DNA of 12,810 nt from Caldisphaera sp. (GTDB lineage Archaea; Thermoproteota; Thermoprotei_A; Sulfolobales; Acidilobaceae). A program made the position numbers and the translations under genes. Location: NCBI GenBank assembly GCA_049971805.1, contig JBMFKU010000032.1:1-12810 (forward strand), given 5' to 3'. Below the pieces are notes generated by a model. It did no database searches. It was not told where the DNA came from and worked only from the letters and a program-made list of their open reading frames with translations. Positions 1 to 11,683 of the stretch are shown piece by piece (position 1 is the first letter of the stretch; each line of letters begins with the position of its first letter).

Positions 1-628
1 GGCTTGTCAAGTTTTTGACTACAATAAATTTTAAATGGGGGATATCTTTTAGGCTTAAAGTTCTTCCAAATTCTTCGTTAATTACTTTTACATCAACTTC
101 TTTATTCCAATTTTTGCAAGATACATAAACCCTAAAATTGTTATCATAAACTATTTTCTCTGCCCATACATCTACTTCTAAATATTTACCGATTCTGGTT
201 AACAACTTTGCATTCACATCTATTTGAAACCCTAGTTCGCTCAATACATTAGCAACTATCGATTCAAGGAGTTCCCTTGATGGATTCTTACTTTGAAACA
301 TATTAGCAGCAGAAAGAAAATTCGGATTTTGTCCTTTACATGCCCTTTTTATGAAATAGCTAACAGAGCTTATAGGTCTTCCAATTTTTTCCGATATTTC
401 TAACAAAGGTCGATTTTTGTAATATTCTTTGCATATAAATTCTCCTTCTTTTTTGGTAATCTTTCCTCTAGTATTATAAGATTGTTTTCTTGAAGGGCCT
501 ATACCATGTTTTCTCAAAATTCTATAAACAGTATAAGCACCAATATTATGAGATTTAGCTATTTCAGAAATTTTTAAGCCATTAAAATAATCTTTAACTA
601 TTTTATCTTCCTCAATTTTTGTAAGCAT
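1..628 (-). CDS. Tandem-HTH plus Mrr-like PD-(D/E)XK restriction endonuclease domain protein; 3' end runs off the window
   Basis: Not in the ORF track. Manual translation from the ATG at 628 gives 209 open codons. Two HTH-like segments (KISEIAKSHNIGAYTVYRILRKHGI; PLLEISEKIGRPISSVSYFIKR) are followed by RELLESIVANVLSELGF...EVDVWAEK...VYVSCKNWNKEVDVKVINEEFGR, the typical Mrr_cat layout (E..L...GF, D, xCK, V..V.E). Confidence 0.85.
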   Translation of the reverse strand, partial: MLTKIEEDKIVKDYFNGLKISEIAKSHNIGAYTVYRILRKHGIGPSRKQSYNTRGKITKKEGEFICKEYYKNRPLLEISEKIGRPISSVSYFIKRACKGQNPNFLSAANMFQSKNPSRELLESIVANVLSELGFQIDVNAKLLTRIGKYLEVDVWAEKIVYDNNFRVYVSCKNWNKEVDVKVINEEFGRTLSLKDIPHLKFIVVKNLTS

Positions 629-659
629 CTCTATTACCAATAGAATATAATTTTCCAAA

Positions 660-993: not shown

Positions 994-1452
994 TTAAAGA
1001 GACTCAGATAGTTTTGTCACATTATTTATATATTCACTTAATGTCCTACAATAATTATTTTTATCGTCTTTATAACAATTCCTAGATTGATATTCATTCT
1101 TTGATGATGAGTACTTATTCAATAAAAATCTAGAGATTTCTCTAATTAACGAATATTTATCACCGCCAAAGATAAGTGTTTCAGCCATTTTATGCAATAG
1201 TAATGCGCCATCTTTGTCTTTTACTAAGAAATCTACAAAATTAGGAAAGCTATCAAATTTAAACTTTATATCAGATATTTTATCTAATAGTTCTTTTAAT
1301 TTAATATTAGTAGTTTGTAAACCTCTTTGAAAGTTATTAGATCTCTGTAATCTCCATAACAAAGCTTCTATTTCAAAATCAATCGAATATATAGTGAGAG
1401 ATGGTAATGAAGAAATGGATACTTTCAATTCCATTTCATGGATCCATTGCAA
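994..1452 (-). pseudogene. Helical protein, probably a 5'-truncated remnant; weak resemblance to a type III small subunit (Cmr5/Cas11-like)
   Basis: 152-aa ORF with a TTG start (ATG alternative at 1434). It overlaps head-to-head with the csx1-like fragment, leaving no intergenic space for a promoter. ISSLPSLTIYS near the N-terminus and EYINNVTKLSESL at the C-terminus loosely echo Cmr5 motifs. This is an eyeball resemblance only. Confidence 0.35.
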
Positions 1453-1884
1453 AAGAATATTAAGGATATAGTTTTTAGCTCAGAAATAAGTCAAGATATA
1501 ATAGAAAACGAACTAAACAATATTCACGTTGGGTTAAAAAATAACTTTGAGGAATTAGTGAAACAGGCCAAAAAAGATAATTTCAAAATACCATTATATA
1601 AATTTTATAAGACAAAAAGTGATGAAGTTGATAAACAAAACTTAGAAGAAATGATTAAATCTATAGGTCAAACAAAAAGGAACTTTATAGCTCATGCAGG
1701 TCTTTTAAAGGAATTAGTTATTGTTGACGTAAAAGATTTAGTTGATTTAAATAAAAATATGGAAGATTTTGATAAAAAAATAACTAAAGCAAAATTATAT
1801 TATAATAATACAGACGAAAATTTTGATAAAATATTGGAAATATTGAATAAAATAGTTCAAGGTATAGATAACCTGTGGAAATAG
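1438..1884 (+). pseudogene. csx1: C-terminal HEPN ribonuclease portion of a Csx1/Csm6-type CRISPR type III effector; CARF domain absent
   Basis: KRNFIAHAGL (R-x4-H at 1678-1695) is the hallmark crenarchaeal Csx1 HEPN motif. It is preceded by IIENELNNI and followed by LVIV...LYY. The ORF is only 148 aa versus about 400-480 aa for full Csx1, and the frame is closed upstream by TAA TGA at 1405-1410. Confidence 0.7.
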
Positions 1885-2326
1885 TTTTAATATACTAAAA
1901 ATAAATTTAATTAATTTTTTATACCCTTTGAGACTATTAAGTTTTCCTAGACTTATACTTCATCAATTAATCCATTTAATGATAAGAAATTAAAAAAGCA
2001 AGCTATGGAGAATGCAATAAAGTTAATCCTTACCTGATGATGAATTTTGCTTAAGAGGGTAATTGTATTAAGATTGTGAAAATAGTTGTGATGTATTAGG
2101 AAAGTAGATATGCTACATTAGAAAATGACTCAATAGAACCTTTTTACTCTATAGAAAAGGTATATAAGGAAGATAGTGATGTTTTTCTCAATTTATCCCA
2201 ATGATTTAGGAGTTAATGTTTACGATCCCTTAAAAGGGGTGCGCGGCCGAATTAGAAGTGGTTAAAAATAAGGAAAAGTTAAGCCGGGGGAAGGAGGGGG
2301 AGGGGAATAAACACACAAAACATATC

Positions 2327-2430
2327 ATAGCATTTAAAATTTTTAACTTTAAAATAGCAATTAACATTAGGTGATTAAATGTCTTCTAATGATACAACGA
2401 ATCTAAGAAATTTTGTAAACCAAGCAAAGG
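2327..2430 (+). repeat. Direct repeat copy 1: duplicate of the herA promoter, RBS and first 17 codons
   Basis: Ungapped match to 5976-6079 (offset 3649) with 7 mismatches in 104 bp. Includes TTTAAAATTTTTAACTTTAAAATAGCAA, AGGTGA (2369-2374) and the ATG at 2379. Confidence 0.97.
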
Positions 2431-4652
2431 CTTTAAGACTTCTTGATTTAAACAATTTAAAGTACTACTATGGAGTTAATAAGGAACCTCTTGAAATACA
2501 TGAAAAACTTTCTTTATATAAAGGCCCTAAATTTGAAGAAGAGTTAATAAATAGAAAGGAAATCTCAAATAAAATATCATTATGGGATCCGTCTAAAGAT
2601 CCTTTAGTCTATGCCATTGTTGGTGTTTCTGGAGTTGGAAAAAGCTGGCTCACTTACAGAATAGTTAGAGAAGCTTTACTTTCTGAAGCTAATATAAAAG
2701 CTTACGCAATTGATGATATGGAAAATTTTGATTATCCTAAGGATAGATCTCTTTTGCTTATAGACGATTCAAGGGTAAGTGAATCTGAGCTAAAGGAAGC
2801 ATATAAGCTACTTATAAAAGCAGTTAAAAAGCAAGAAAAAGAGGTAACAGGACCAATAATAATTACAACTACAGATATTGATTGGGACACAATTTATAAA
2901 ACAGCTCTAAATGGTCTTAATAGTGATGAGGAAAAAGAAAGATTAAAGAGCAGAACTGTAATAGTTAATGTAGGAAAAGCAAGCAAGGATGAGATGCATA
3001 AAATTCTGGATCAGCTTCTTGGAGGTAAGATTCCCATTTCTAATGATTTAAAAGAAAAAATAATTGAAAATGCTAATGGGTTACCTATAATACTTAGGTA
3101 TTTTATTGAAGGTAAAAAAGCAATAAGACAAAAAGATATAGATGAGATAGAAAAAGATCCAGTGAAATATGCCGCAAAAAAGATAGAGCAATTTTATCTA
3201 TTTGACTGCAAAATATCATCAAGAAGGAAAGAAGACAAAAAGGATTTCTTGCTAATACTTGCCCTCCTTGGTGCTATATTAAAAACTAAAAATGTAGTTT
3301 TAGGCGAGATTGATAAAGATGCACTCAATCTTATATATGGAGAAGATTATGAGAAATCATACATTATAAAATCCCTTGACGCTCTTTTTAATGAGCAAAA
3401 GAAATTAAAGACGAAACAACCTAAGATTGGGACTATAGGATTAACAATGAAAGGAATTTATACAAGGTTTCCTCTTTTCGAAACAGATCCTATTTATGGC
3501 GAAATCAGGCCAATTCACAATTCAGTTAAAAAAGGTTATGATTATTTATTTAAATCAATTTTTGAAAGTTATGAGAGTGAAATAGATGATTGCATAAAAA
3601 ATTTAAGAAGCCAAATGTATAACGTTGAAGAATATCATGAAGTTATTAATGGTATATTGAAAGAATTAGAAAGAATTCCTCAGAATTATTTTAAATTTTT
3701 TGAGGATTACCTTAAAAATAAAGAAAAATATAAGAGATATAATAATAAAAGAAAAAAGTTGGCTTATGATATATTATCGGTCGAATTTTTACATTCTCTA
3801 TGGTATAATAAGGATATTTTTGAGCTTATGGCTCTTGATGTTCTCGTAAATATTGATGATATAGATGATAAGCTTTTACATGGAATCGTTAACTTATTAT
3901 TTAATGATTTTGTTTTGAATAACATAAATGCTTTAAGCAATATTGATGATTTTCACAAACTGTTTTTGGGAGCATTAAAATCTAATGATGAATATGTTCG
4001 CTCACGTGCTTGGGAAAACTTAACAAAACTTATTGATAGGGGAATGATTGATAAAAGAGACTCGGATTACTTCCTCTCTTTATTAAAATCTAGAGATGAA
4101 AAAGTTCGTTTAACTGCTTGGGAAAACTTAACAAAACTTATTGATAGGGGAATAGTTGAATTAGAAAGTGTTAAAATAAGGAAGAATTATTTCTTATCAT
4201 TATTGAAGAGTAGTAACGAATATGTGCGATTAACTGCTTGGGCCGATCTTACGAAACTTATTAGTAAAAAAATTTTAGGTAAAAGGGAAGATTACTTCCT
4301 CTCATTATTAAGAAGTAGTAACGAATATGTACGTCTATATGCTTGGTACAACGTACTTGAGCTCATGGACAAAGGATTGGTTGATTACGAAAAGGTTAAA
4401 GAAAATAGGAGCTATTTCTTATCATTGTTGAAGAGTAATAATGAATATGTACGTTTAACTGCCTGGGAAAACTTAACAAAACTCATTTATAAAGGATTTA
4501 TCGATTTCGATAAGGTTAAAGAAAGGAAGAACTATTTCTTATCATTATTGCAATCTGAAAATAAATATGTTCGCTCACGTGCTTGGGAAAACTTAACAAA
4601 ACTTATTGACATAGGGATTTTAAGTAGAGATTATATAAAAGATAATAAATAA
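2379..4652 (+). CDS. NLR-like STAND-class P-loop NTPase with C-terminal HEAT-like repeats (757 aa)
   Basis: LINRKE pre-motif, Walker A GVSGVGKS (aa 82-89), Walker B LLLIDDS, sensor-1 IIITT and STAND GxP motif NANGLPIIL. Six 35-40-aa repeats LLKSxNEYVRLxAWENLTKLIxxG run from about aa 532. AGGTGA RBS upstream. Confidence 0.85.
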   Translation: MSSNDTTNLRNFVNQAKALRLLDLNNLKYYYGVNKEPLEIHEKLSLYKGPKFEEELINRKEISNKISLWDPSKDPLVYAIVGVSGVGKSWLTYRIVREALLSEANIKAYAIDDMENFDYPKDRSLLLIDDSRVSESELKEAYKLLIKAVKKQEKEVTGPIIITTTDIDWDTIYKTALNGLNSDEEKERLKSRTVIVNVGKASKDEMHKILDQLLGGKIPISNDLKEKIIENANGLPIILRYFIEGKKAIRQKDIDEIEKDPVKYAAKKIEQFYLFDCKISSRRKEDKKDFLLILALLGAILKTKNVVLGEIDKDALNLIYGEDYEKSYIIKSLDALFNEQKKLKTKQPKIGTIGLTMKGIYTRFPLFETDPIYGEIRPIHNSVKKGYDYLFKSIFESYESEIDDCIKNLRSQMYNVEEYHEVINGILKELERIPQNYFKFFEDYLKNKEKYKRYNNKRKKLAYDILSVEFLHSLWYNKDIFELMALDVLVNIDDIDDKLLHGIVNLLFNDFVLNNINALSNIDDFHKLFLGALKSNDEYVRSRAWENLTKLIDRGMIDKRDSDYFLSLLKSRDEKVRLTAWENLTKLIDRGIVELESVKIRKNYFLSLLKSSNEYVRLTAWADLTKLISKKILGKREDYFLSLLRSSNEYVRLYAWYNVLELMDKGLVDYEKVKENRSYFLSLLKSNNEYVRLTAWENLTKLIYKGFIDFDKVKERKNYFLSLLQSENKYVRSRAWENLTKLIDIGILSRDYIKDNK
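3972..4640 (+). repeat. Six tandem coding repeats (HEAT/ARM-like alpha-solenoid units)
   Basis: Visible in both protein and DNA. Units 1 and 6 share an identical 46-nt block (3991-4036 = 4564-4609), and GCTTGGGAAAACTTAACAAAACT or a close variant recurs in four units. Confidence 0.95.
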
Positions 4653-4931
4653 TATATTTTATTTTATATAATTAGTTGTTATCAATATTTTAATTAATTT
4701 ATGTGTTTTTGATAAATTTTCATGATAAAGGTGTGGTCTTATAACTATTTAAAAAATTAGTTGTTTATTAGCGAGCATTATTCTCAATTAATTTGAAATA
4801 TTTTAATAATAAACAACCTTTTTGTTACTGCATTCTTATACAAAGAATTTTTTTCTTTCTTTATACTTTCATTTGCTAAAAATCATACTTGTTAATTTTT
4901 AATTCAAAAATGTAAGAAATTATTATTATGA

Positions 4932-5927
4932 TTATTCGCTCAAGTCTCTCATAGCTTCAATATATCTATTCCAATCATCATAGTTTACTTCCATTAGGCT
5001 CATAGCATTAATAAAAGATATTAAATAAGTTGAGGCACTTAACCTTCTAGAAATCTTATCTGCTGCCTCTATAAAAGTCGGTATTCCTCTTATTGATGTA
5101 TTTTTTATAGAAGTCCATACACCTTCACACAATAATTCCTTATTCCTGCTCTCAACTCTGAAAACGCTATTTCTAACCTTAATGTATACCATATAACGAT
5201 AAAACTTGTTTTTCAATATCTCAACTTCTTCCTTATAAATTGGAGAAATAAATTTATCAAATCCTTTGCTCATCTCAAATACTATTATATCATCAGTTGC
5301 TCCAATATCAACTAATTTTTTATATTTTTTAGCTATGTTTTCTTCCCTGCTTAATTTTCTTGTAAAGCTTAGCCTCTTTACTATTCCTATTAGATTTTCA
5401 GTCTTCCTTTTAATATTAAGAGTTTCAAAAGCTGATTTATAAGGCTCTCCAATAATTTTTGTATATGGTCCAGGAAAAATTGGGCCATCAACAATTAAAA
5501 CCTTGCTCTTAGCGTTGTTTATGGCATAATTCTCAAGGCTTATCCTCAGCTCGTCCAAAATATTATCATCCTTATAGTTAACTGAATATTGCACATGGTT
5601 AACATTTTCAGTAACAATAAAACCTAGATCCTTTACTTTATTTATTACTTCGTTAGATCCCTTTATAGCTATAAATGGTATTGATGCATCTAAAGGTATT
5701 AATATATGCTTCCCATTATCGTTTGCGTATAGCGAAGCTAAGTAAAGGTTTGCCCCTCGTACATTTATTATCCTTGAGGAGCTGTCTAAATAACCAAATT
5801 CATCTAGAGGCTCACATCTATCAATTTCTCCTTCATAATTTATGTAACTCGTTTCATCAATAATGCCCGAAGGTAAATCTGAACCCAAGTAGCTTTCTTT
5901 ATATGATATTTCAGATAAAATCTTCAT
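4932..5927 (-). CDS. nurA: NurA-family 5'-3' nuclease (RNase H-like fold)
   Basis: Catalytic-type motifs FGYLDSSSR and LIVDGPIF, IGIVKR, and a C-terminal RGIPTFIEAADKISR. Divergent from a HerA ATPase gene. The frame stays open upstream (IFTEVDYAIRSL) without a canonical start codon. Confidence 0.88.
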   Translation of the reverse strand: MKILSEISYKESYLGSDLPSGIIDETSYINYEGEIDRCEPLDEFGYLDSSSRIINVRGANLYLASLYANDNGKHILIPLDASIPFIAIKGSNEVINKVKDLGFIVTENVNHVQYSVNYKDDNILDELRISLENYAINNAKSKVLIVDGPIFPGPYTKIIGEPYKSAFETLNIKRKTENLIGIVKRLSFTRKLSREENIAKKYKKLVDIGATDDIIVFEMSKGFDKFISPIYKEEVEILKNKFYRYMVYIKVRNSVFRVESRNKELLCEGVWTSIKNTSIRGIPTFIEAADKISRRLSASTYLISFINAMSLMEVNYDDWNRYIEAMRDLSE

Positions 5928-5975
5928 TAATGATCTTATTGCATAGTCTACTTCCGTAAAGATCCCTATTAAATT

Positions 5976-6079
5976 ATAGCGTTTAAAATTTTTAACTTTA
6001 AAATAGCAAATAACATTAGGTGATTAAATGTCTTCTAATGATACAATAGATTTAAGAAATTTTATAAACCAAGCAAAGG
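5976..6079 (+). repeat. Direct repeat copy 2: native nurA/herA divergent promoter region plus herA 5' end
   Basis: 97 of 104 positions identical to 2327-2430. Contains TATA-like TTTAAAA boxes and AGGTGA at 6018-6023 before the ATG at 6028. Confidence 0.97.
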
Positions 6080-7665
6080 AAAATGCTAGTAAAAATGGGG
6101 AAGTAGTTGGTATAGCCTCTAGGATAACCCCAATATCATATGGAAAGGAAAATAATGAAATAAAGGCAGAAATCCCATTTGAAGTATATTTAAACAAAAA
6201 ATTTTTGATAGGAAGCTATATTGGTATTTCGTTACCATTTTCAAAATCATTAATTTTAGGAAGAATAATAAATGTAGAGAGATCCGATATTTTAGCAATA
6301 TCAAAAATACCTGCTTTAACTCCAACTGAAGATATCTCCAGTTTAACAACACCTCTTTCATTAACTATTGAGCTTCTATCTGAGGAAATAAACGGAGAAG
6401 TAGTTCCCCCTTCTTCTCCAATAGACCCTCAAAGCCCCATATTTATACCAAATAAGGATTTTATAATAAGAATGCTTGGTTTGCCAAAAGAAGGGGTTGA
6501 GATTGGTAATATAATGGAGGGTTATAAAGAACTGGATATAAGATTAAAGTTAACGGATGAAATCTTAAGACATCATATATTAATTGTAGGAACTACTGGT
6601 GCTGGAAAAACTAATTTGTTAAAGGTAATTATGAGAAACAGTAACATACCTTTGATAGTTTTTGATATACAAGGTGATTATGTTAAGCCAGCAGCTGAGC
6701 TTGGATATAACATAATTGTACCAATAACAAGCGATTATTCTAAATCAGAAATTAATGATATAATAGCTAATTACTTAAAAAGGAGCAACATAAGCAATAA
6801 AGTTGATAAAATAGTAGGTCCTATGGTTTTTCTAGATGGGGAGAAAAAGTTTAAAATTAATCTAATTGGCTTTAAGCTTGTAAAAACTTATGGTTTAATA
6901 GCTGAGGTTTCACCTTTCTTCTCATCCCAAGGTGCAGCATTCTTTAAAATGTTAACAAGTAATTGTGAAGGTACTATAGATTTATGGGAAAAAAATTGCG
7001 AAAGGAACTTAAAAAGCTTGCCTTTACATCAGACAACAAAAGATAACATAATTAGATCAGTAGTATTGCTAAGGGAAACAGGAGTTATTGATACTTATAT
7101 TAAAGAAGGTAAAACCGATCTTTATTTAGATGAACCTCAATATAATGATATAATAAGCGGAAAAACAATAGTAGATTTAAGATTTGTTCTCGAGAAAGGT
7201 GTTTCTGCAGCTACCATGTCCGCTTTTATTATAGCAGAAAGAATATTTGAACTTGTTGATAGTAGGTATAAAAATGAAGGAAAGGAAACACCATTTTTAA
7301 TGATATTTGATGAAGCTCATGAATATTTTCCTCAAAGTGGGAGAGGCGATGAAGGAAAAGAGGCATTAGAAAAATTGATTAACAGAATAATGAGGTTAGG
7401 TAGGGTAAGAGGGATAGGGACGATTCTAGCTACTCATAGGCCTACGGATCTAAATGATTTGATTCTTACTTTAGCAAATACTAAGATAGCGTTGAGGGCA
7501 GACGAAGACGCGTTAATGAAAATTGGCATGGATAAATATACGAATTTATTGCAATCTTCACCAGCAGGATATGGAATAATAAGAACATTTTCTTTAAAAG
7601 TTCACGATTTGGAATTTAGATCTTTAAAGTTCGCAGAAAATTCAGAAAGAAAAGATTCAACATAA
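6028..7665 (+). CDS. herA: HerA-family ATPase/helicase (HAS barrel plus FtsK-HerA ATPase), NurA partner
   Basis: N-terminal HAS-barrel-like region (IGSYIGI...ILGRIINVER...PIDPQSPIF), RHHILIVGTTGAGKTN Walker A, IFDEAHEYF Walker B, RLGRVRG arginine finger and ATHRPTDLN motif. It is a paralogue outside the mre11/rad50 operon. Confidence 0.93.
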   Translation: MSSNDTIDLRNFINQAKENASKNGEVVGIASRITPISYGKENNEIKAEIPFEVYLNKKFLIGSYIGISLPFSKSLILGRIINVERSDILAISKIPALTPTEDISSLTTPLSLTIELLSEEINGEVVPPSSPIDPQSPIFIPNKDFIIRMLGLPKEGVEIGNIMEGYKELDIRLKLTDEILRHHILIVGTTGAGKTNLLKVIMRNSNIPLIVFDIQGDYVKPAAELGYNIIVPITSDYSKSEINDIIANYLKRSNISNKVDKIVGPMVFLDGEKKFKINLIGFKLVKTYGLIAEVSPFFSSQGAAFFKMLTSNCEGTIDLWEKNCERNLKSLPLHQTTKDNIIRSVVLLRETGVIDTYIKEGKTDLYLDEPQYNDIISGKTIVDLRFVLEKGVSAATMSAFIIAERIFELVDSRYKNEGKETPFLMIFDEAHEYFPQSGRGDEGKEALEKLINRIMRLGRVRGIGTILATHRPTDLNDLILTLANTKIALRADEDALMKIGMDKYTNLLQSSPAGYGIIRTFSLKVHDLEFRSLKFAENSERKDST

Positions 7666-8330: not shown

Positions 8331-8768
8331 TTATATAAACCCTTCTTTTTCCAACCTGCTTTGTATTTTTTTAGCTACAATTTTTCCCCTATTAGCAACA
8401 TCATCTATATCCATAGACCTTTCATGGAATCCCCATACATGGAGCTTATCTGCTATGTCAAATATGTCTGTTAAACCCAATTCATAAGAGGCCTTATCTA
8501 AAAGTCTTCTAGTCCATTTTCCCTTAAGCTTTGCTTCTCTTGCCTCTAGAAGGTCATAAGATTCAGCTAATAGTTTTACAAACTCTTCTGCAGCCTTATA
8601 TATCTTCTCGGAGGCCTGAACAGGATCACGTTTTTCTATATATTCTTCAAACTCTTCTAGCCTCTTATTAATCTCTTGGACGTATATTCCTTTTAATGCT
8701 TCTTTTACGTCTTCTTTCCTCTTAAATTCAATTGCCACCTTTCTCACCATTCTTGATTTATCTTTCAA
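8331..8768 (-). CDS. PaREP1-family protein (HEPN-related crenarchaeal repeat-family protein)
   Basis: DPVQASEKIYKAAEEFVKLLA, GKWTRRLL and LHVWGFHE are characteristic PaREP1 motifs. Confidence 0.9.
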   Translation of the reverse strand: MKDKSRMVRKVAIEFKRKEDVKEALKGIYVQEINKRLEEFEEYIEKRDPVQASEKIYKAAEEFVKLLAESYDLLEAREAKLKGKWTRRLLDKASYELGLTDIFDIADKLHVWGFHERSMDIDDVANRGKIVAKKIQSRLEKEGFI

Positions 8769-8805
8769 AATTAATATATTATTACAAGGTCTACCCCTTA
8801 CTTTT

Positions 8806-8992
8806 CTAGGACGTGAGCCCCATCCTGGGGCTATGGGAGGTGGCGCGGAGCACCAGGTAGCCCTGGGTCATTATAGTATTGTTTGAGTAGGCATATACCT
8901 GGACCTGATGAGCCAGGATCTGGGCTCTAGCTATTACTGACTGGAAAGCTATTAGGTCCAGTGTAGATTATTATTGGCAAGAAGCCTCCCAT
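8806..8992 (-). pseudogene. Possible frameshifted 5' fragment of a secreted protein gene
   Basis: Removing one base gives MGGFLPIIIYTGLIAFQSVIARAQILAHQVQVYAYSNNTIMTQGYLV, which looks like a signal peptide with an A-x-A site. No family is recognised. Confidence 0.25.
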
Positions 8993-9364
8993 TTCACTTT
9001 TATTAGCAACTTTACAATTTCATAAAGTTTAAAAAGCGATGCAAGCATGCCGAAGCATAAAGTTTCCACTTTCCTCACAAATGACGATGAAGGCCTTGGG
9101 AAGGGAGGAGCTTAAGGAGAAGAGCAAGGGACGACTAAGCCAGAAAAGAGGTCCTAATCCATGATCCTCGTAGTCCTGAGCTTTATGAAAAACCTTGGTA
9201 TGAACGACGTTTATAAAGAAGCTGAGAAGTGCAACTTATAAAGACTCAGAATACGTCTACTAACTGACGAGTCCACTCACTACTTGAGTTCAATAACTTG
9301 AGGACCACGCTCGTCAGGAGGCTTTATCTCTGACGAGGCCCTTTACATAAGAGCGGGTGAGCTG

Positions 9365-9519
9365 TTGTCAGAAGATGTGTTTGAGGCCTGTCGCACCCGA
9401 CCAAAAGGGCTATAATAAGAGCCCTCGGCGATAAAGGGCATATGACGTTTACTGAACTCATGGATGCCGCTGGGGTCAAGGATACAGGTACTATGACGTT
9501 TCACCCGAGGAGACTCTCA
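9365..9519 (+). pseudogene. Frameshifted, truncated ArsR/SmtB-like winged-helix regulator
   Basis: GGTGA at 9356-9360 and TTG at 9365. Restoring one base near 9388 gives MSEDVFEALSHPTKRAIIRALGDKGHMTFTELMDAAGVKDTGTMTFHPRRLS, the classic VFxALSHPxR...TFTEL...FHLxxL wHTH pattern. Confidence 0.8.
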
Positions 9520-9777
9520 CGACTTGCCGCGAGGATAAGGAGTTGGAGGCTGCTACAGCTGGTGACACAAATAGCGTCATTTGCGCTCACCTTCTTAGCT
9601 CCTGTCTACTTCCCGCTCTCGGTAGTATCCAGATACCTACTGCCCCTCGTCATGATGGAGCCAACCACCTACGTAGCTCAGGCGGTTAGACTCTCTCTGA
9701 TGAGAAGCCCTTTCTCCCTAGCTTGGGACCTCACGACACTATTTTATGGGTTAATATTCGGTACTCTACCCATCTGA
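9520..9777 (+). pseudogene. C-terminal fragment of an ABC-2 type exporter permease, fused in frame to the HTH remnant
   Basis: LTFLAPVYFPLSVV...LVMMEPTTYVAQAVRLSL matches the F.APVYFP...P.TY...IR signature of ABC-2 permease C-termini. The N-terminal helices are missing. Confidence 0.75.
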
Positions 9778-9988
9778 TGGGGCCTGAACTAAGCATCCGT
9801 AATCCTGTTGAGGGTCTTAAAAAAGGTGTGAGGTCTATCCTTTCTCTATGATGGCCTAGGATCCCAAGAGCTCACTCAGGCTTCACCACGAGCAACTGAT
9901 AGACAAGCTGCTTCCTCTTAAACCATCTCTTTATCTCAACGCTGTCACTTGGGGTTTCTATTACTATAGCCTGACAATAAAGTGGTAA

Positions 9989-10018
9989 TCCTCGTCCTTC
10001 AGGATGGGGAGAAGGTCA
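9989..10018 (+). mobile_element. IS200/IS605-family right-end hairpin (also the 3' end of a TnpB omegaRNA scaffold)
   Basis: 9-bp stem 9989-9997/10002-10010 with two G-T pairs, a TTCA loop, then GAAGGTCA. Confidence 0.75.
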
Positions 10019-10103
10019 TTATGGAACTTTCTTTACAATTATAATATTATTTTTAAAATTAAAATGCTTAAATAATTTACCTTAGTTATAAATTTAAAAG
10101 AGA

Positions 10104-10147: not shown

Positions 10148-11683
10148 ATGGGCTTTAGGAAGGAGTTGGGGTTTTGGCACGTATTATTTTTAACGTTAGG
10201 AGCAATTATTGGTGATGCAGTAGCATTTATTCCCGTTTATGTTTTAGGTTATGATGGTCCAGCAGGTATTTTATCATGGGTTATTGCATTTCTCTTAATT
10301 ATACCTGTTGCTTTAGTTGTTATAGAACTTGGAACTATGTGGCCCAGAGCTGGTGGCGTAGCTTACTACCCAGCTAAAAGCAATGGGCCAGTTGCTGGTT
10401 CAATAAACGGTTGGTCTGCATTTTTAGGATATGCTTTAGTCACTCCAAGTTCTATAATAGCTTTTGTTGAATACCTAGCATATTATTTTCCATCATTATA
10501 TAAATCAGGTTTTCTAACTGTATTGGGTATAGTAATAAGTGCAATAATAGCTTTAATAACGTATTTGATAAACAACAAGCACGTTGGTTTAATAGGTGAC
10601 ATAAACAATTATTTAACAGTTTTAAAAATAGCTATGGTTATGATACCTGTTTTGGCTCTATTTGCCTTCTTTAATGCAAAGAACTTTAATTCACCAATTT
10701 TAGGAGGTTTTATGCCTGTTAACTTAGGCGCAATAGGTTTCTTCACTGCAGTAACATCAACAATTCTGGCATACGCTGGATTTAAGCAGCCTGTTAATTA
10801 TTCAGAAGAGGTTAAAGATCCTGGGAAGTTTATACCTAAAGCAGTTATAGCATCTTTAATAATAACAATGATAATCTATTTGGTTGAAAGCATTGCATTT
10901 TTAGGAGTTGCGGATAAAGTTATCAGTAACCCATCTCAATGGCCTTCATTAATAACTCTACCATATCCATATATAACGGCTTTGACATCAGTTAAAATAC
11001 CTTCAAATCTTCTTTTAATCTTAATATTTCTAATGATAGCAGGAACGATTATTGCCTCATATACAGATGCATTAATTTATTTTGGTGGTGCCTCAAGAGT
11101 TGGTTATTCCCTATCATTTTATGATAGATAATTCCCCAAAGTTTTCTCAAAGCTAAACAAAGAGGGAGTTCCATACATTTCGAACATATTAATATTTGTC
11201 CTATCAATAATTTACCTTCTACTTTTACCATCTTTTGCAACAATATTTACTGTTTTAATAGATGCTTTCATCTTCTCATATGCTCCATTAGCTATAAGCG
11301 TTGCAGTTTTTAGGGCTAGATATCCTGATGAGAAAAGGCCATTTAAAGTTCCAGTATCTAAAATATTATCTCCCATTGCCTTTGTTATTGGAGGTTTACT
11401 AATTTATTGGTCAGGATGGAGCGCTATTTATATAGCTGGCATATCAGTTCTCATAGGTTTGGTATTTCTTGCTTATTATCATAAAAGCATAGGAATAAAG
11501 AAGAGGGATTTCATAGCAGGAGGATGGCTACCTTTATATTTGGTTTCAACAATGATAATTTCATATTTTGGGAGCAGCAATTTAAACAAAATACCATTCC
11601 CATACGATAACATACTATTTATTGTAGTTTCATTAATATTCTATTTCTGGGGTTATGAGGCTGGAAAGAAATTTGAATACTAA
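10148..11683 (+). pseudogene. APC-family amino acid permease interrupted by one in-frame TAA (11129-11131)
   Basis: GAIIG, ELGTMWPRAGGVAYY, AYAGFKQ..YSEEVKDP and ASRVGYSLS motifs. The same frame continues YDR*FPKVFSKLNKEGVP...RARYPDEKRPFKVP through the track ORF 11459-11683 to the stop, 511 codons in total. Confidence 0.92.

Follow-up and report, generated by a model that had tools for sequence, protein, structure and literature searches.

The STAND-HEAT gene at positions 2379–4652 of a contig from Caldisphaera sp. is, in the reading that we favour and regard as likely, a lineage-specific chimera in which the sensor half of an Avs5-like immune gene carries a patch made of the 5' end of the neighbouring herA gene. 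The window analysed here is the whole of that 12.8-kb contig (12,810 nucleotides; contig C32 of genome G000), and the genome to which it belongs comprises 1.52 Mb in 66 contigs at ~31% G+C and is rated 96.6% complete. An initial annotation, made from the letters of the window alone, had proposed that the STAND-HEAT gene, nurA and herA form an undescribed archaeal defence module, with an effector-less sensor and the NurA-HerA helicase-nuclease, or a nearby Mrr-like nuclease, acting as effector in trans. Our analyses confirmed the open reading frame (ORF), its Walker A motif at residue 82, its six HEAT-like repeats and the intact nurA and herA genes, and demonstrate that the trio came about through a recent rearrangement at this locus and does not represent a defence system of wide occurrence. 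New here is a lineage-specific truncation with capture of a promoter and a start codon. The genes and repeats concerned are:

2324–2430, plus strand: copy 1 of a 107-nt direct repeat, composed of a 55-nt herA-type promoter/leader and the first 17 codons, which are the 5' end of the STAND gene
2379–4652, plus strand: chimeric STAND-HEAT gene, 757 aa (aa 1–17 herA-derived; aa 18 to ~520 second NTPase module and helical domain; aa ~530–757 six HEAT-like units), from Pfam, alignment and model
3974–4624, plus strand: HEAT-like array, six units of 35–40 aa (105–120 nt), from a DNA repeat scan
4932–5927, minus strand: nurA, 331 aa, CRISPR-associated paralogue family, divergent from herA (Pfam NurA E 1.5e-15; PADLOC PDLC01056 E 3.7e-16)
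5973–6079, plus strand: copy 2 (the original) of the repeat, with the promoter region and first 17 codons of herA, within the divergent nurA/herA intergenic region (100 nt)
6028–7665, plus strand: herA, 545 aa, CRISPR-associated paralogue family (PADLOC PDLC01055 E 5.6e-56; Pfam DUF87 and HerA_C)

The shared 5' end of the STAND gene and herA

The STAND protein and HerA have almost identical N-termini over their first 17 residues, and this similarity is part of a direct repeat of 107 nt, ~93% identical between 2324–2430 and 5973–6079, which occurs at these two places and nowhere else in the whole genome. The copies differ at eight positions, three of them ahead of the ATG (55 nt) and five in the coding part (52 nt). 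A genus mate that has no STAND gene (G144) possesses a divergent nurA/herA pair collinear with positions 4926–7608 of the window at 77% nucleotide identity, and the promoter core TTTAAAA(A)TTTTTAACTTTAAAAT was kept in all four aligned copies including that of this genus mate, the A-run being one base shorter in both window copies. All six HerA sequences of the subfamily retain an N-terminal helix of this type ahead of a conserved GEVVG strand, whereas the relatives of the STAND protein have unrelated sequence ahead of their YYGVN motif, where the window protein has the 17-residue peptide. Because the HerA helix is conserved, the genus mate has the same pair and promoter core, and the STAND relatives differ at this point, these alignments show that herA was the donor and that the direction of copying was from herA to the STAND gene. 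The same comparisons show that the divergent orientation and the promoter core of nurA/herA are older than the chimera.

The junction follows codon 17, with the family alignment beginning at residue 18 (ALRLLDLNNLKYYYGVN), equivalent to ~residue 700 in the full-length relatives. The next in-frame methionine of the STAND ORF is residue 114, which is past Walker A, and the borrowed ATG is therefore the only one that gives an intact NTPase. The 5' region of the gene contains a complete promoter-like region, a Shine-Dalgarno-like GGTGA and the ATG, and co-regulation of the STAND gene with herA via the copied promoter is likely.

The 2430/2431 junction was spanned by contigs from three sequencing runs of three studies, and an independent metagenome-assembled genome (MAG) contig, L032, holds the same chimera; for these two reasons the junction is not an assembly artefact. 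The Logan contigs end at the repeats, with no single piece covering the entire locus. A single inversion was rejected as the origin of the chimera, as it would yield inverted and not direct repeats and would disrupt herA. Directly upstream of repeat copy 1, at 2285–2307, is a G-rich tract, CCGGGGGAAGGAGGGGGAGGGG, which is odd for a 30% G+C genome and has one additional G past position 2301 in two sequencing runs.

Relatives of the STAND-HEAT protein carry long N-terminal regions

The STAND family is rare. A word-indexed search returned four proteins, and a HMMER scan of 1.84 billion representatives gave 12 matches at E<=1e-3. The other MAG contributes one of these, which is the same chimera. 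Five further matches have the module at residue 453–1399 of a longer protein, two start no more than 10 residues before it, and four are fragments or weak partial matches. A module profile run over 351 genomes of the class matched seven: five Sulfolobaceae-level genomes, a genus mate and the genome of the window itself. In the first five, the ORFs are 997–1654 aa in length and their nSTAND3 domain starts at ~aa 390–450 in four and at ~aa 700 in the other. All six genomic relatives for which context was available have roughly 390–1400 residues ahead of the module.

What precedes the module in these relatives is consistent with an immune function. Pfam SIR2_2 was identified at the N-terminus of three of the 11 relatives scanned (P0005, P0006 and P0011), P0005 being the 1439-aa ORF of locus L033 from Sulfolobales archaeon HS-7, and also in the 1840-aa ORF of a metagenome contig (L034). 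The order of elements in the relatives, as judged by eye, is SIR2, a first P-loop, a hydrophobic stretch, a coiled coil, the YYGVN motif, the module seen in the window and the same 40-aa HEAT unit. The nSTAND3 domain (PF20720) scored above cut-off in the window protein, P0004 and P0006. P0004, the closest relative with upstream sequence (53% identity, partial), has at least 315 aa further upstream, including another P-loop.

Since the relatives carry long N-terminal regions that include SIR2, the window protein appears to be a truncated sensor half. These comparisons show that residues 18–757 correspond to the sensor half (second P-loop NTPase, helical domain and HEAT array) of large archaeal single-protein immune genes. 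The proposal in the initial annotation of an effector-less sensor therefore holds in one respect and fails in another: Pfam found no SIR2_2 in the 757-aa protein, bearing out the absence of an effector domain, but that absence is the outcome of a truncation, the first 17 codons and the promoter being copied from herA. Its placement in an immune-type STAND family is well founded, given SIR2_2 in four relatives and the domain logic of Avs5.

The missing half might, in principle, be supplied from elsewhere, in a split system whose SIR2/first-NTPase half is encoded at another place in the genome and acts in trans. The family does have a natural break directly ahead of the YYGVN motif, at which P0008, P0009 and the ORF of L035 start, and the assembly is in 66 contigs. 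However, SIR2_2 had no match at E<=0.1 in the whole 96.6%-complete genome, and tblastn of four N-terminal halves against it gave nothing significant, the best match being a 102-aa stretch of another contig at E 0.002. The break in L035 also looks like an A7-run frameshift and not a designed split. We regard a split system as highly improbable.

L035, a metagenome relative, accounts for one of the two short forms. It has a SIR2-bearing piece upstream, and a longer frame is interrupted by a shift at an A7 run directly ahead of the module. This change of frame (~1440–1475) coincides exactly with the point where the coiled coil gives way to the STAND module; it could be an error of sequencing or a genuine frameshift between two domains, perhaps a programmed one.

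In HS-7, the full-length SIR2-...-HEAT gene (7904–12223 of L033) also lies in a CRISPR/defence neighbourhood: genes for cas2, a Cas3-like helicase and VapB flank it on one side, and at ~7 kb on the opposite side there is a RAMP gene. P0003 and P0004 (53% identity), which are the nearest relatives outside Caldisphaera, are on contigs of 1.5–2.4 kb that were assigned to a Nanoarchaeota bin and a Caldimicrobium bin, which reflects either mis-binning or horizontal spread.

Domain architecture and comparison with Avs5

The Walker A motif GVSGVGKS (aa 82–89) and the Walker B residues DD (aa 129–130) of the window protein occupy invariant columns of the family alignment (G82-x2-G85-x-G87-K88-S89 and D129-D130). 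The Pfam nSTAND3 match, at aa 79–213, is just above threshold (28.1 bits vs a cut-off of 27.2), and that to Pfam HEAT has an E of 1.3e-15. The AlphaFold2 (AF2) model of the protein (predicted local distance difference test, pLDDT, 76.8; predicted template modelling score, pTM, 0.47) resembles STAND proteins (6mfv, Apaf-1, NLRC4, NOD2 and EfAvs5, with E 2.2e-4 for EfAvs5 9jap_A) and HEAT solenoids such as PP2A-A, at low TM-scores of 0.2–0.3. A PDB sequence search with the STAND part returned nothing at E<=1, and tblastn of the protein against plasmid and phage collections gave no match.

Avs5 is described as having SIR2, an nSTAND3 NTPase and C-terminal repeats (PMC11897194; bioRxiv 10.1101/2025.07.08.663546). 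Four full-length relatives similarly combine SIR2_2 (PF13289), a STAND NTPase and a C-terminal helical repeat sensor, and the window protein has the nSTAND3-type STAND NTPase with its Walker A and B motifs and the C-terminal HEAT repeats. The differences are also considerable: the window protein has no SIR2, and the archaeal relatives have two P-loop modules and, by eye, a hydrophobic/coiled-coil linker. There is no sequence similarity to solved structures. PADLOC includes Avs5 models. Its only matches for the window protein were HEAT-ARM_XIII and mad8, and neither that protein nor its relatives had a match named Avs, the relatives matching ThsA-type SIR2 and others. No description of a two-NTPase archaeal SIR2-STAND-HEAT architecture was found in open-access literature text. 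This Avs5-like archaeal family with two NTPase modules is a by-product of our analyses that is possibly worth more than the trio of genes.

The chimera is under purifying selection

The loss of an effector half raises the question of whether the ORF is a pseudogene fragment that is still open by chance, in which case its adjacency to nurA and herA would be meaningless. In addition to lacking the half that its relatives carry, the gene is surrounded by signs of decay, namely the remnants of cas8a and csx1, a permease gene that is broken and a foreign insertion, and it is missing from five of the six other genomes of the genus. Set against this are the ratios of nonsynonymous to synonymous substitution rates (dN/dS), calculated from the window and L032. 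The value for the STAND gene was 0.32 (0.42 over codons 1–520 and 0.18 over the repeats), with 28 of 65 changes being synonymous vs 19.7% expected (p 1.6e-5). The values for nurA and herA were 0.175 and 0.13, respectively, and the synonymous excess was significant for all three genes (p about 1e-5). Furthermore, three length variants (757, 797 and 683 aa, with 7, 6 and 4 HEAT units represented among them) each have an intact ORF, all 30 invariant family columns, including those of Walker A and B, are retained in the chimera, and the promoter-like region, GGTGA and ATG are complete. Based on the dN/dS values, the intact variants and the retained columns, the gene is not a decaying pseudogene, and, judged by this substitution pattern, the chimera is under purifying selection. 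The dead-remnant explanation is in our estimation unlikely.

The sensor array is length-polymorphic in nature. One sequencing run (X2) contains a variant that joins position 4404 to 4099 with 39 extra letters.

The nurA/herA pair in a decayed CRISPR-Cas neighbourhood

The window nurA gene covers positions 7–253 of the 254 of Pfam NurA, and the best PDB match of its model (pLDDT 67.8) was S. solfataricus NurA (2ygk, E 3.6e-8), with 7f6d and 9x1l also among the best; a NurA profile identified no solved relative among PDB sequences at E<=0.01. A HerA-type ATPase core was found in the window HerA. Both PADLOC models that best match the pair (PDLC01055 and PDLC01056) are labelled 'Type III coevolved'. 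The next HerA model for herA reached 4.3e-22, and the PADLOC HerA models from other defence systems gave E 4e-22 or worse, against 5.6e-56. Against the NCBIfam repair HerA, the window HerA scored 61 bits, where the cut-off is 970. The PADLOC models trace to clusters 57/58 of Shah et al. (PMC6546367). According to the accounts cited here, the first description of CRISPR-associated nurA/herA paralogues came from Pyrobaculum (PMC3396285) and 'Cas HerA/NurA', always paired, were catalogued later (PMC3973734), and the role proposed for NurA-HerA is RecBCD-like, producing DNA for spacer acquisition (PMC3396285; PMC5587795).

Three NurA-HerA pairs are present in the genome. That on contig C24 is part of a repair operon, in which Metallophos (Mre11-like), SMC (Rad50-like), NurA and HerA genes are consecutive. 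The third, on contig C8 (6420–10325; L037), is a divergent pair, with a NurA-like protein of 407 aa, a HerA-like protein of 722 aa and a 92-aa ORF between; it is flanked by metabolic genes, and relatives of its HerA were found across the family. The window pair resembles the Mre11-Rad50-NurA-HerA system in its NurA fold (2ygk, 7f6d, 9x1l) and HerA-type ATPase core, but differs from it in that the system has its separate operon on C24, the window HerA reaches only the 61 of 970 bits given above, and neither mre11 nor rad50 was found by Pfam in the window. The window nurA and herA thus match the CRISPR-associated paralogue family and are not the repair copy.

In the window the two genes are 100 nt apart and divergent, and they adjoin each other in all six related loci examined. 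HerA orthologues with 57–67% identity occur in four genomes of the order, in one of which the orthologous pair ends a type I-A cas operon and has a CARF-PIN gene after it. Another orthologous locus has a csx1 gene nearby, and two have housekeeping flanks. In the four more distant orthologous loci nurA and herA are co-directional (4/4), and the divergent orientation is found in the window, L032 and G144. The herA gene of G144 (L052, contig C12, 1341–2913) is split by a frameshift near residue 392. PADLOC matches to 'mad3/mad8' near the orthologous loci were discounted, as they are ABC-transporter ATPases.

Upstream of the STAND gene are an ORF cut by the contig end and the remains of two CRISPR-related genes:

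2–658, minus strand: helix-turn-helix (HTH; Cbp1-like) and Mrr_cat protein, N-terminal 219 aa (Pfam Mrr_cat E 1.3e-5, Sigma70_r4_2/HTH); the ORF continues past the contig end
994–1479, minus strand: cas8a/csa4 remnant, C-terminal third only (ORF 994–1452; PADLOC Cas8a E 1.1e-10, TIGR01914 E 1.8e-10)
1411–1884, plus strand: csx1/csm6 remnant, HEPN only, without CARF (ORF 1438–1884; PADLOC Csx1/Csm6 E 3.9e-11; Pfam Csx1_HEPN)

The Cas8a remnant covers only model positions 239–333 of 353, with its open frame limited to 994–1479, and the Csx1/Csm6 remnant covers positions 304–394 of 396. Their frames overlap head to head at 1411–1479, an arrangement suggestive of a deletion between two divergent cas genes in which both lost their 5' halves and promoters. 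The HTH_Cbp1 (NCBIfam) match of the 2–658 ORF (E 8.3e-6) is under the model cut-off. These two remnants and the Cbp1-like HTH gene are the only cas context near the pair. Neither Cas1 nor a RAMP protein was found in the assembly, and scans for CRISPR arrays with Tandem Repeats Finder (TRF) and k-mers revealed none, only a three-copy 54-nt repeat on contig C22. MAGs frequently lose CRISPR arrays.

The remnants show that the pair sits in a decayed CRISPR-Cas neighbourhood. It is similar to other CRISPR-associated NurA-HerA pairs in its best profile match and its paired adjacency, has cas remnants beside it, and differs from them in the divergent orientation of this subclade and in having no Cas1, RAMP protein or array in the assembly. 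The pair appears to have outlived its CRISPR-Cas system. That it was kept at dN/dS 0.13–0.18 where core cas genes were not found suggests a role for NurA-HerA that does not need CRISPR-Cas.

The three-gene linkage does not recur

If the STAND-HEAT gene, nurA and herA were a genuine three-gene module, in which STAND-HEAT detects a viral cue and NurA-HerA (or the Mrr-like nuclease) serves as the effector in trans, recurrent linkage of the three would be expected, as the initial annotation had anticipated. However, tblastn with all three NurA and all three HerA proteins of the window genome detected neither in any of six loci of STAND relatives at E<=1e-3 (0/6; L033 and L045–L048, each extended by ~10 kb in either direction, and L034, a contig of 7 kb). 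Conversely, none of five orthologous nurA-herA loci (G095, G055, G074, G024 and G144) has a STAND-HEAT gene, and their genomes have no match to it at all. The trio was found only in the window genome and one close genus mate, the STAND gene being present in one of the six other genomes of the genus. As the two trio lineages are close (dS 0.04–0.07), they count as a single event. The linkage is thus shown to lack recurrence: outside the two lineages no co-occurrence was seen in the DNA examined, which comes close to what the initial annotation had said would refute it, and the trio is kept in those two close lineages. In G144, the position of the STAND gene is taken by an 824-aa DUF87/HerA-like ATPase convergent with nurA (4244–6718 of L052), and it appears that different P-loop NTPase genes can occupy this variable position.

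Several observations are nevertheless in keeping with a module. The gene order, STAND -> <- nurA herA ->, is common to both lineages, a duplicate of the herA promoter would drive the STAND gene, and all three genes are under purifying selection. In addition, HerA ATPases are known effector partners in the Sir2-HerA and DUF4297-HerA defence systems, as reported in PMC11472057, PMC11514289 and PMC11291478. The window resembles those systems in that a HerA-family ATPase adjoins an immune gene of a SIR2-using family, and is unlike them in that there is no SIR2 in the window or genome, the partner of HerA is NurA, and their HerA models score far lower. The statement in the initial annotation that the combination is unnamed was upheld, since PADLOC names no system for the trio. 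Other evidence against a module is that the pair and its promoter predate the chimera and that the Mrr-like gene is beyond two cas remnants.

The captured peptide offers a further test of the module, as it could conceivably be a NurA-docking motif. It was modelled at pLDDT <50 and has been changing more rapidly than the remainder of the protein (3 of 17 vs 31 of 665 residues, p 0.048), and in the published T. kodakarensis HerA-NurA complex the contacts described for NurA are with the alpha1 helices of the HAS domain of HerA and not its extreme N-terminus (PMC12977600). On these grounds we regard a docking motif as unsupported. A model of STAND residues 1–270 together with a NurA dimer, run without controls, scored under the mark and carries no weight here. 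More probably, what the borrowed segment contributes is a promoter and a start codon, not a peptide for docking. Taken with the missing recurrence, these findings make a genuine module unlikely.

Proposed history and function

We propose that the ancestor of the two close Caldisphaera lineages would have had a full-length Avs5-like gene convergent with nurA. Its 5' part, of at least ~0.9 kb and probably ~2.1 kb, encoding SIR2 and the first NTPase, would then have been lost and the gap patched with a locally templated 107-nt copy of the herA promoter and start. The truncated protein would be transcribed in parallel with herA and nurA from the duplicate promoter; it probably still binds ATP and its ligand and oligomerises, but could not deplete NAD+. 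Its most likely present state is that of a binder or regulator with no effector, expressed together with NurA-HerA; if it is coupled to NurA-HerA, the coupling would be regulatory, by way of the promoter that they share.

Certain points weigh against this history. P0008 and P0009 start just before the module, and the STAND family may have a natural short form; P0008 is without genomic context. We infer the size and content of the lost 5' part from relatives at 28–53% identity, and an intermediate, namely a full-length gene beside nurA, was not found. Promoter activity of the copy at 2324–2378 is deduced from its sequence, and the route of the patch, whether templated repair or another, is conjecture. 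The dN/dS values come from a single pair of close lineages with 65 changes, and purifying selection shows a function of some kind.

We consider it fairly probable that the STAND protein is an effector-less binder or regulator that does not hand over directly to NurA-HerA. We think it unlikely that its effector is NurA-HerA or, with still lower odds, the Mrr-like protein, and about as unlikely that the gene is functionally dead in spite of the selection signal; the small share left is for a split system or an artefact. The more specific scenario of a natural effector swap, in which a STAND-HEAT sensor that lost SIR2 was re-wired via the herA promoter and start into a regulon with the CRISPR-orphaned NurA-HerA, and NurA-HerA would degrade DNA in trans when the HEAT array binds a viral protein, is one to which we attach little probability.

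The favoured history represents one concrete route by which immune STAND genes can be remodelled, with the self-toxic effector half lost, the promoter and start of a neighbour copied and the product retained by selection. It also represents a caution for defence calls made through guilt by association, since a tidy trio of genes can be the outcome of one recent local event. The 107-nt repeat, the Cas8a and Csx1 remnants, the long N-termini of the relatives and the match to CRISPR-associated paralogues had not been mentioned in the initial annotation.

Other features of the window

Rfam and tRNA scans of the window gave no matches. Downstream of herA, a stretch of 1.7 kb (8332–10040) is missing from the otherwise collinear L032 and has 43–47% G+C vs ~30% around it. 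It contains a PaREP1 gene (8331–8768, minus strand) and otherwise short ORFs, without an Rfam or tRNA match, and may be foreign or mis-assembled DNA. Beyond it is an amino-acid permease ORF (10148–11131 and downstream) of 327 aa, compared with 511 aa in L032 at 98% nucleotide identity, which is probably a frameshifted pseudogene or the result of a sequencing error.

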